A DNA stretch of 1,978 nucleotides from Escherichia coli. GTDB taxonomy: Bacteria; Pseudomonadota; Gammaproteobacteria; Enterobacterales; Enterobacteriaceae. The notes beneath the pieces are model-generated. The model did no database searches, was not told the origin of the DNA, and saw nothing but the letters and a program-made list of their open reading frames with translations. The DNA is taken from the NCBI RefSeq assembly GCF_003334255.1, contig NZ_QOWU01000142.1; one strand, given 5' to 3'. Positions 1,612 through 1,730 of the stretch are shown here, in pieces; position 1 is the first letter of the stretch; the number at the start of each line of letters is the position of its first letter. Both the position numbers and the translations under genes were made by a program.

Positions 1612-1646
1612 ATTCCCTCCTTTGGTGTTAATCCCGGCGAACGCTT

Positions 1647-1730
1647 TTACCCACACCGACAAATAACATATACTAAAAAAGCGATAGCCATAGCAACGCC
1701 TGTAATTGCAAATGCTTCAGGCCAGATCAT
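1647..1730 (-). CDS. Small hypothetical hydrophobic peptide (27 aa), translationally coupled to the upstream DUF551-like gene
   Basis: AGGAGG (1743-1738) lies 7 nt upstream of ATG 1730-1728, which overlaps the TGA stop (1729-1727) of the upstream gene in an ATGA arrangement. Translation gives MIWPEAFAITGVAMAIAFLVYVICRCG, stop TAA 1649-1647. Confidence 0.3.
   Translation of the reverse strand: MIWPEAFAITGVAMAIAFLVYVICRCG

Follow-up and report, generated by a model that had tools for sequence, protein, structure and literature searches.

A promoter-like sequence within a small prophage ORF

We analysed a 1978 nt stretch of Escherichia coli DNA (hereafter the window, numbered from its first nucleotide), in which a preliminary description had placed a promoter-like element on the plus strand, inside a small open reading frame (ORF) of 27 aa read from the minus strand. 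The window is 100% identical to positions 1201875–1203852 of E. coli JE86-ST05 (NZ_AP022815.1), where it lies inside a lambdoid prophage. Among 5426 complete E. coli genomes, 676 carry copies with at least 91% identity; O157:H7, O26, O111 and O145 strains are represented. All genes in the window are on the minus strand, in a region bounded by replication genes and the antiterminator Q gene, and throughout the 14 kb neighbourhood the genes are co-directional except for one that is cut at the locus edge.

Read in the direction of its genes, the window contains the 3′ part of a DUF551 gene (1727–1960; matches to phrog_60 and phrog_924), which is annotated as a pseudogene fragment in JE86-ST05. 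Within its 3′ end lies the AGGAGG ribosome-binding site (1738–1743) of the unannotated 27 aa ORF (1647–1730, MIWPEAFAITGVAMAIAFLVYVICRCG), whose predicted product is a small hydrophobic peptide of the single-pass type. Then come a 34 aa ORF with a GTG start and an AGGAGG site (1507–1611, MSDDISLAMEGALAVIAVVGVYCLVVFLMDRLGN; WP_001278450.1, annotated as hypothetical), a hok leader and sok region at 1256–1430 (Rfam RF01794, 117.6 bits) and, by annotation, hokD (51 aa, 1106–1261), a 92 aa hypothetical protein (660–938) and a DUF968 (ydfU-like) gene that ends at 658.

The candidate promoter is made up of a −35-like hexamer, TTTACC, at 1646–1651 (four of six matches to TTGACA), a 17 nt spacer (1652–1668), inside the 16–18 bp range of sigma-70 promoters, and a −10-like hexamer, TATACT, at 1669–1674, in which the first T, the second A and the last T are present among five of six matches to TATAAT. 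The sequences, spacing and plus-strand placement are thus as first described, and nine of 12 positions match in a consensus scan. The site has neither a TG extension nor an AT-rich upstream element, and a run of six A residues follows the −10 hexamer. The region had also been called AT-rich, which holds locally but not more widely, the 100 nt windows here being 45–49% GC. Judged from the spacing, transcription would start about 7 nt past the −10 hexamer, at 1680–1682 on the plus strand. This corresponds to 1638491–1638493 (minus strand) in EDL933 (NZ_CP008957.1) and to approximately 1550892 (minus strand) in Sakai (NC_002695.2). A transcript from about 1681 would run rightward with full complementarity to the first ∼50 nt of the 27 aa ORF, its ATG, its AGGAGG site and the 3′ end of the DUF551 gene, so that the geometry agrees with the antisense orientation originally proposed.

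Both hexamers derive from sequence that is read on the other strand. On the minus strand, TTTACC corresponds to the last Gly codon of the 27 aa ORF, its TAA stop (1647–1649) and one following A; TATACT is the reverse complement of ttA-GTA-TAt, from the Leu-Val-Tyr codons. The two hexamers are flanked by an imperfect inverted repeat (1636–1648 and 1677–1689; 13 nt, 85% complementary, 28 nt loop). In the sense mRNA this repeat would enclose the 3′ end and stop codon of the 27 aa ORF, just upstream of the ribosome-binding site of the 34 aa ORF.

Strength of the candidate core

Scored with a simple position-weight matrix, the candidate reaches 12.5 bits, the highest sigma-70 score in the window and above those of the predicted hok and sok promoters (10.2 and 9.7 bits respectively). 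The same hexamers and spacing (TTTACC-17-TATACT) are found upstream of lolC in EDL933, where the start (1622267), 7 nt past the −10 hexamer, is seen in eight of eight conditions in the published Cappable-seq table for that strain. Because the candidate shares its core with this active promoter, RNA polymerase probably initiates near 1681 at some level. The likeness covers the −35 hexamer (followed by CA), the length of the spacer and the −10 hexamer, whereas the spacer and flanking sequences differ. Furthermore, the lolC promoter is intergenic and drives an essential operon, while the candidate is intracoding and antisense, with no gene to express.

The 7 nt rule also performs well at the locus itself. 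It places the start of the predicted sok promoter (TTGCCT-17-TAACCT, 1275–1310, plus strand) at 1310, which is confirmed by EDL933 start 1638863 (minus strand, eight of eight conditions), and a weaker 8.1-bit site on the minus strand (1522–1495) matches a condition-specific start mapped to window position 1488. On the strength of these comparisons between sequences, the candidate is a credible, promoter-grade sigma-70 core, and we consider it fairly probable that it gives a detectable transcription start. The canonical EDL933 start-site table covers gene-associated starts only. The supplements of Tree et al. (2014) contain nothing at the candidate's Sakai coordinates.

A clearly less likely explanation is that the hexamers are a silent chance match, unused in vivo through occlusion by sense transcription, silencing of acquired DNA or unfavourable flanks, for example slippage at the A6 run. 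A consensus scan of the window found three promoter-like sites, where shuffled sequence gave 1.9 ± 1.3, and an equal or better site occurred in 28% of Markov-shuffled windows, so that the occurrence of the candidate is not in itself beyond chance. Both this frequency and the missing TG and upstream elements count in favour of a silent match. So does the behaviour of the two highest-scoring sigma-70 sites (16.8 and 13.6 bits) across 50 kb of EDL933, which divergently flank a racR-like repressor gene of the homologous prophage (1632261–1632985), where early promoters would be expected. Neither has a start in the canonical table (zero of eight conditions), consistent with tight repression of early promoters, and they illustrate that a good core does not guarantee firing in a prophage. 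Against a silent match, the identical lolC core fires in every condition, and weaker sites at this very locus, the sok promoter and the 8.1-bit site, have mapped starts. Antisense starts are, moreover, very common in O157:H7: Zehentner et al. (2023) report 10,355 non-canonical start sites in EDL933, and among the starts listed there many genes carry several antisense ones.

Sites of this quality are infrequent in related real sequence. Only seven sites of at least 12 bits were found in 64 kb (50 kb of EDL933 around the homologous prophage and the 14 kb JE86 locus). The four in EDL933 are the lolC site, the two sites flanking the racR-like gene and the homologue of the candidate; of the other two, in JE86, one comes just after Q, where a late promoter is expected, and one immediately precedes a tRNA cluster. 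The five sites other than the candidate are therefore all at expected promoter positions. Real sequence is also depleted relative to shuffles: at the 12-bit threshold 50 kb hold four sites where shuffles give 9.1 ± 3.3, and at 10 bits 24 where they give 44.

Conservation of the hexamers

The motif is confined to the sublineage of the 27 aa family that also carries the 34 aa ORF. It is absent from the homologous position in 12 of 12 divergent family members, whose best antisense sigma-70 scores (5–10 bits) are scattered over non-homologous positions. At the place of the −10 hexamer, other members have CTG GTG GTG TAT or ATT GTT TTT, which provide no −10. Within the sublineage, the motif is present in seven of the seven E. 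coli genomes sampled (once as TATATT) and in about 110 of 117 IMG/VR loci, which were located by means of an anchor outside the hexamers. The EDL933 locus at 1.485 Mb is without this module.

Alignment of 22 haplotypes, representing 97 loci, gave two variable columns out of 12 in the hexamers, one out of 17 in the spacer and 11 out of 73 in the remainder of the ORF. The similar proportions in the hexamers and in the rest of the ORF mean that the hexamers show no extra constraint; as judged from these alignments, they are neither specially protected nor decaying within the sublineage.

The 27 aa ORF as a small membrane-protein gene

A tblastn search against phages found the 27 aa ORF in 92 phage records. 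Thirteen loci from lambdoid, Shiga-toxin, P1-like (SJ46) and Vequintavirinae phages gave the consensus MxWPEAF..G.AMA.A..VY.ICRWG over 24–27 aa. Variable columns are distributed 13/11/23 over the three codon positions, the third varying most; pN/pS is 0.35 in the frame of the ORF, the lowest of the six frames; and one copy has an in-frame 6 nt deletion. The peptide contains 17 uncharged residues in a row, AITGVAMAIAFLVYVIC. Family members end in C-R-W-G, with a single charge and a single bulky residue, and the window copy in C-R-C-G. PGAP has not annotated the ORF in any of the records examined, and a small number of submitters list its product as hypothetical. This pattern of variation indicates that the ORF is a genuine conserved small membrane-protein gene, mostly missed by annotation.

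Its ATG (1730–1728) overlaps the TGA stop of DUF551 as ATGA (4 nt), with the AGGAGG site 7 nt upstream of the ATG. A purine-rich site and a start overlapping the preceding stop recur in other phages, as ATGA in most copies and with a 14 nt overlap in JLK-2012, and the genes upstream differ from phage to phage (DUF551, Ea22-like, EaA and unrelated hypotheticals). The overlap with the upstream stop marks the ORF as an operon gene and not a stand-alone toxin cassette, and we infer that it belongs to the distal part of a phage early (nin-type) operon, where its translation is coupled to that of the preceding gene.

Several copies in resident prophages and phages carry radical or inactivating changes. 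These include W26C in the window (codon 26 at 1650–1655), W26stop in O26:H11 11368 and A17D in O157:H7, together with W3stop plus a frameshift in the Shigella phages POCJ13 and 75/02. In the close sublineage, variable columns are distributed 2/6/5 by codon position, so that position 2 varies about as often as position 3. Taken together, these sequences suggest relaxed constraint on the ORF in resident prophages.

Searches of PHROGs and NCBIfam with both small peptides gave sub-threshold matches only (phrog_38566, E = 0.0035; KdpF, E = 0.024, below the cutoff; SecE, E = 0.069). A full-text literature search for the N-termini of the peptides returned no paper, and neither peptide is present in the supplements of an Enterobacteriaceae microproteome study. 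Some DUF551 proteins of 121 aa cluster with the 27 aa peptide, which raised the possibility of a fusion of the two. This was rejected: those proteins have no such segment, and the clustering is therefore an artefact.

The 34 aa ORF and the junction repeat

The 34 aa ORF lies 35 nt from the 27 aa ORF, and within the sublineage the two stay together also when their neighbours are different genes. In Sakai, it corresponds to XECs145, there extended upstream to the equivalent of window position 1668, which in LB has an RNA RPKM (reads per kilobase per million mapped reads) of 79.1, a footprint RPKM of 346.1, a ribosomal coverage value of 4.35 and a coverage of 0.99 (Huecker et al., 2017). With its lower limit of 30 aa, that screen did not extend to the 27 aa ORF, and the direct evidence of translation concerns XECs145, which adjoins and overlaps it. 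The sense strand at this locus is thus transcribed and translated in Sakai lysogens, a point in favour of a silent match. Lysogens normally keep the nin region silent, yet the 34 aa ORF, which lies there, is strongly occupied by ribosomes in uninduced Sakai. The canonical EDL933 table assigns no sense-strand start near this ORF.

A descent of the two small ORFs from a tandem duplication was considered and rejected, since BLASTP gave no alignment and alignment of the DNA matched at the junction repeat only. The latter is an 11 nt direct repeat, CGYTTTTACCC, at 1467–1477 and 1642–1652, 175 nt apart, whose second copy holds the candidate −35 hexamer. In phages without the 34 aa ORF, the sequence GGG/GGA TAA AAA CGG joins the 27 aa ORF directly to the hok promoter. 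That the same junction sequence is found there implies that the repeat marks the edges of a segment of about 175 nt bearing the 34 aa ORF, and the arrangement suggests insertion of a module at the 11 nt repeat junction.

The other copy of the repeat also holds a promoter-like site on the plus strand, TTTACC-17-TATCGT (1471–1499; 10.2 bits), from which a transcript beginning near 1506 would cover the entire 34 aa ORF in antisense. The −10 hexamer of this site lies in the right arm of a perfect 22 bp palindrome, CGATATGGGAATTCCCATATCG, with a central EcoRI site, located at 1477–1498 between the stop of the 34 aa ORF and the hok promoter. The centre of the palindrome, at window position 1488, coincides with a minus-strand Cappable-seq start of EDL933 (1638685, three of eight conditions). 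Because no U-tract follows on either strand, the palindrome does not qualify as a classical terminator, and it may serve to bind a protein.

No sign of a discrete antisense RNA

Over more than 1.2 kb downstream of the candidate, the plus strand showed no intrinsic terminator, in line with the preliminary description. Nor is the predicted RNA unusually structured, folding of its first 150 nt being no more stable than that of shuffled sequences (z = −0.68). The interval 1646–1760 has no Rfam match, RF01794 (minus strand) being the only significant one in the window. To the right, no plus-strand gene is annotated for about 6 kb, all genes being on the minus strand. Any transcript from the candidate would be a long untranslated antisense RNA and not a discrete small RNA (sRNA).

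The type I toxin–antitoxin system of the window

It had been proposed that a cis-antisense RNA would give the small ORF a layout resembling a type I toxin–antitoxin (TA) system. This finds no support, because the ORF is operon-coupled, the motif is absent from divergent homologues, and there is neither a terminator nor a structured RNA. Known type I toxins are small hydrophobic peptides of about 70 aa or less, encoded by free-standing genes that have their own promoter and flanks of over 400 nt upstream and over 250 nt downstream (Fozo et al., 2010). In size and membrane character the 27 aa peptide resembles them, but its gene is not free-standing, its flanks measuring −4 and 35 nt. Nor is there a discrete antisense sRNA gene, only a promoter-like site with no terminator, structure or Rfam match; and the motif, being present in one sublineage of the 27 aa family only, is not co-inherited with the peptide.

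The genuine type I system of the window is hok/sok, at 1106–1430. Like the candidate locus, it combines a small hydrophobic peptide gene with an opposed sigma-70 promoter whose RNA is complementary to the translation-initiation region. In contrast to any RNA from the candidate, Sok is short, discrete and structured, and its constitutive promoter has a mapped start. The hok mRNA is expressed from a separate promoter, and its long folded leader carries the overlapping mok frame, whereas the 27 aa ORF is coupled to its operon. The expected 5′ end of the hok mRNA (about 1430–1435) is not in the canonical EDL933 start-site table. A constitutive sense start maps to window position 1319 (minus strand), just 58 nt upstream of the hokD ATG. 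At 1016–1097 (minus strand) there is a sub-threshold match to IsrK, a Salmonella prophage sRNA (27.1 bits against a gathering score of 50), ending in a strong terminator, AACCCGCTTCGGCGGGTT-TTTTG, just downstream of hokD. This is probably no more than the 3′ end and terminator of the hok mRNA.

Other known pairs give a similar picture. Ibs/Sib, Ldr/Rdl and ZorO/OrzO (Fozo et al., 2010) share with the 27 aa ORF the size of the peptide and its single hydrophobic stretch, and the two adjacent small ORFs recall the tandem arrangement that served as a search criterion in that study. However, those systems occupy long intergenic regions and have dedicated sRNA genes, and the two ORFs here are dissimilar by BLASTP. 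Among phage RNAs, the oop and paQ promoters of lambda, like the candidate, oppose transcription from pR and yield RNA that is complementary to an early gene, at its start or its end. The oop RNA is 77 nt long and has a defined terminator, and paQ is CII-dependent, with TTGC repeats at its −35 region. Neither the terminator nor the TTGC repeats are found at the candidate.

These comparisons bear on the proposal that the site serves a functional cis-antisense regulator, type I-like or oop/paQ-like and specific to the sublineage, whose RNA, starting at about 1681, would pair with the 27 aa ORF mRNA at its ribosome-binding site and start region and limit the synthesis of a potentially toxic peptide in lysogens; the site at 1471–1499 might do likewise for the 34 aa ORF. 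The promoter-grade core would suit such a role, as would a transcript fully complementary to AGGAGG and ATG and a small hydrophobic peptide with an R-W/C-G tail, as in many type I toxins (Fozo et al., 2010). It would also fit that both small hydrophobic ORFs have an antisense promoter-like site at their 3′ end on the same repeat, and that they travel together despite differing flanking genes. We nevertheless regard this as improbable. The short flanks of the ORF contrast with those of known type I toxins, the motif is missing from all 12 divergent homologues, the predicted RNA has neither a terminator nor a stable structure, and the hexamers are no more conserved than their surroundings. Further, the dissimilarity of the two peptides leaves tandem duplication unsupported, and several copies of the ORF carry inactivating or radical changes with no sign of consequence.

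A more elaborate possibility, to which we give very little credence, is that the 27 aa and 34 aa genes are each held in check by a cis-antisense transcript arising from the same 11 nt repeat (sites 1646–1674 and 1471–1499). If that were so, Shiga-toxin-type prophages would have, clustered in their nin region, three membrane peptides under RNA control, hok/sok being the third, and the antisense RNAs of the two genes would be unusual in having no terminator. Least plausible of all is a promoter for a plus-strand protein-coding gene or mRNA further right: two short ORFs do lie downstream (1779–1856, 25 aa; 1789–1884, 31 aa), but both are antisense inside the DUF551 gene and without independent support, and the genes annotated over about 6 kb beyond are all on the opposite strand.

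Discussion

On balance, we lean towards viewing the candidate as an incidental, lineage-specific antisense promoter that arose from coding and junction sequence, and that is probably responsible for low-level pervasive antisense transcription at most. The −35 hexamer coincides with the stop and last Gly codon of the 27 aa gene, within a short junction repeat, and the −10 hexamer with the Leu-Val-Tyr codons in the A/T-rich synonymous form of one sublineage. RNA polymerase would initiate near 1681 at some level, and an untranslated transcript would run antisense through the start region of the 27 aa ORF and the DUF551 3′ end, presumably to be stopped by Rho or by decay, because there is no intrinsic terminator. 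It would not be a dedicated antitoxin RNA, nor would the 27 aa ORF be a type I toxin cassette. The caution with which the promoter was first put forward, as speculative, seems to us appropriate.

Four considerations weigh against this view. The activity of the candidate is deduced from its sequence. The comparable sites in related DNA all stand at expected promoters and real sequence is depleted of them, which makes an intragenic site of such quality somewhat unusual, and selection could maintain it. The sublineage is too uniform (94% mean identity) for selection on the hexamers to be either detected or excluded. Finally, the second site, antisense to the 34 aa ORF and lying on the same repeat, is a parallel that hints at design over accident.

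An incidental promoter would find ready company among the non-canonical antisense starts of O157:H7 (Zehentner et al., 2023), which are likewise intragenic and antisense with a standard sigma-70 motif; the candidate differs from this class only in its above-average core score. If active, it would join thousands of antisense starts catalogued for pathogenic E. coli, and nothing points to a dedicated role. The 27 aa gene is the more useful by-product of the analysis, found as it is in lambdoid (including Shiga-toxin), P1-like and Vequintavirinae phages. Small membrane peptides that prophages express in lysogens are candidates for a role in excluding superinfecting phages or modulating the host, and for that reason deserve annotation.
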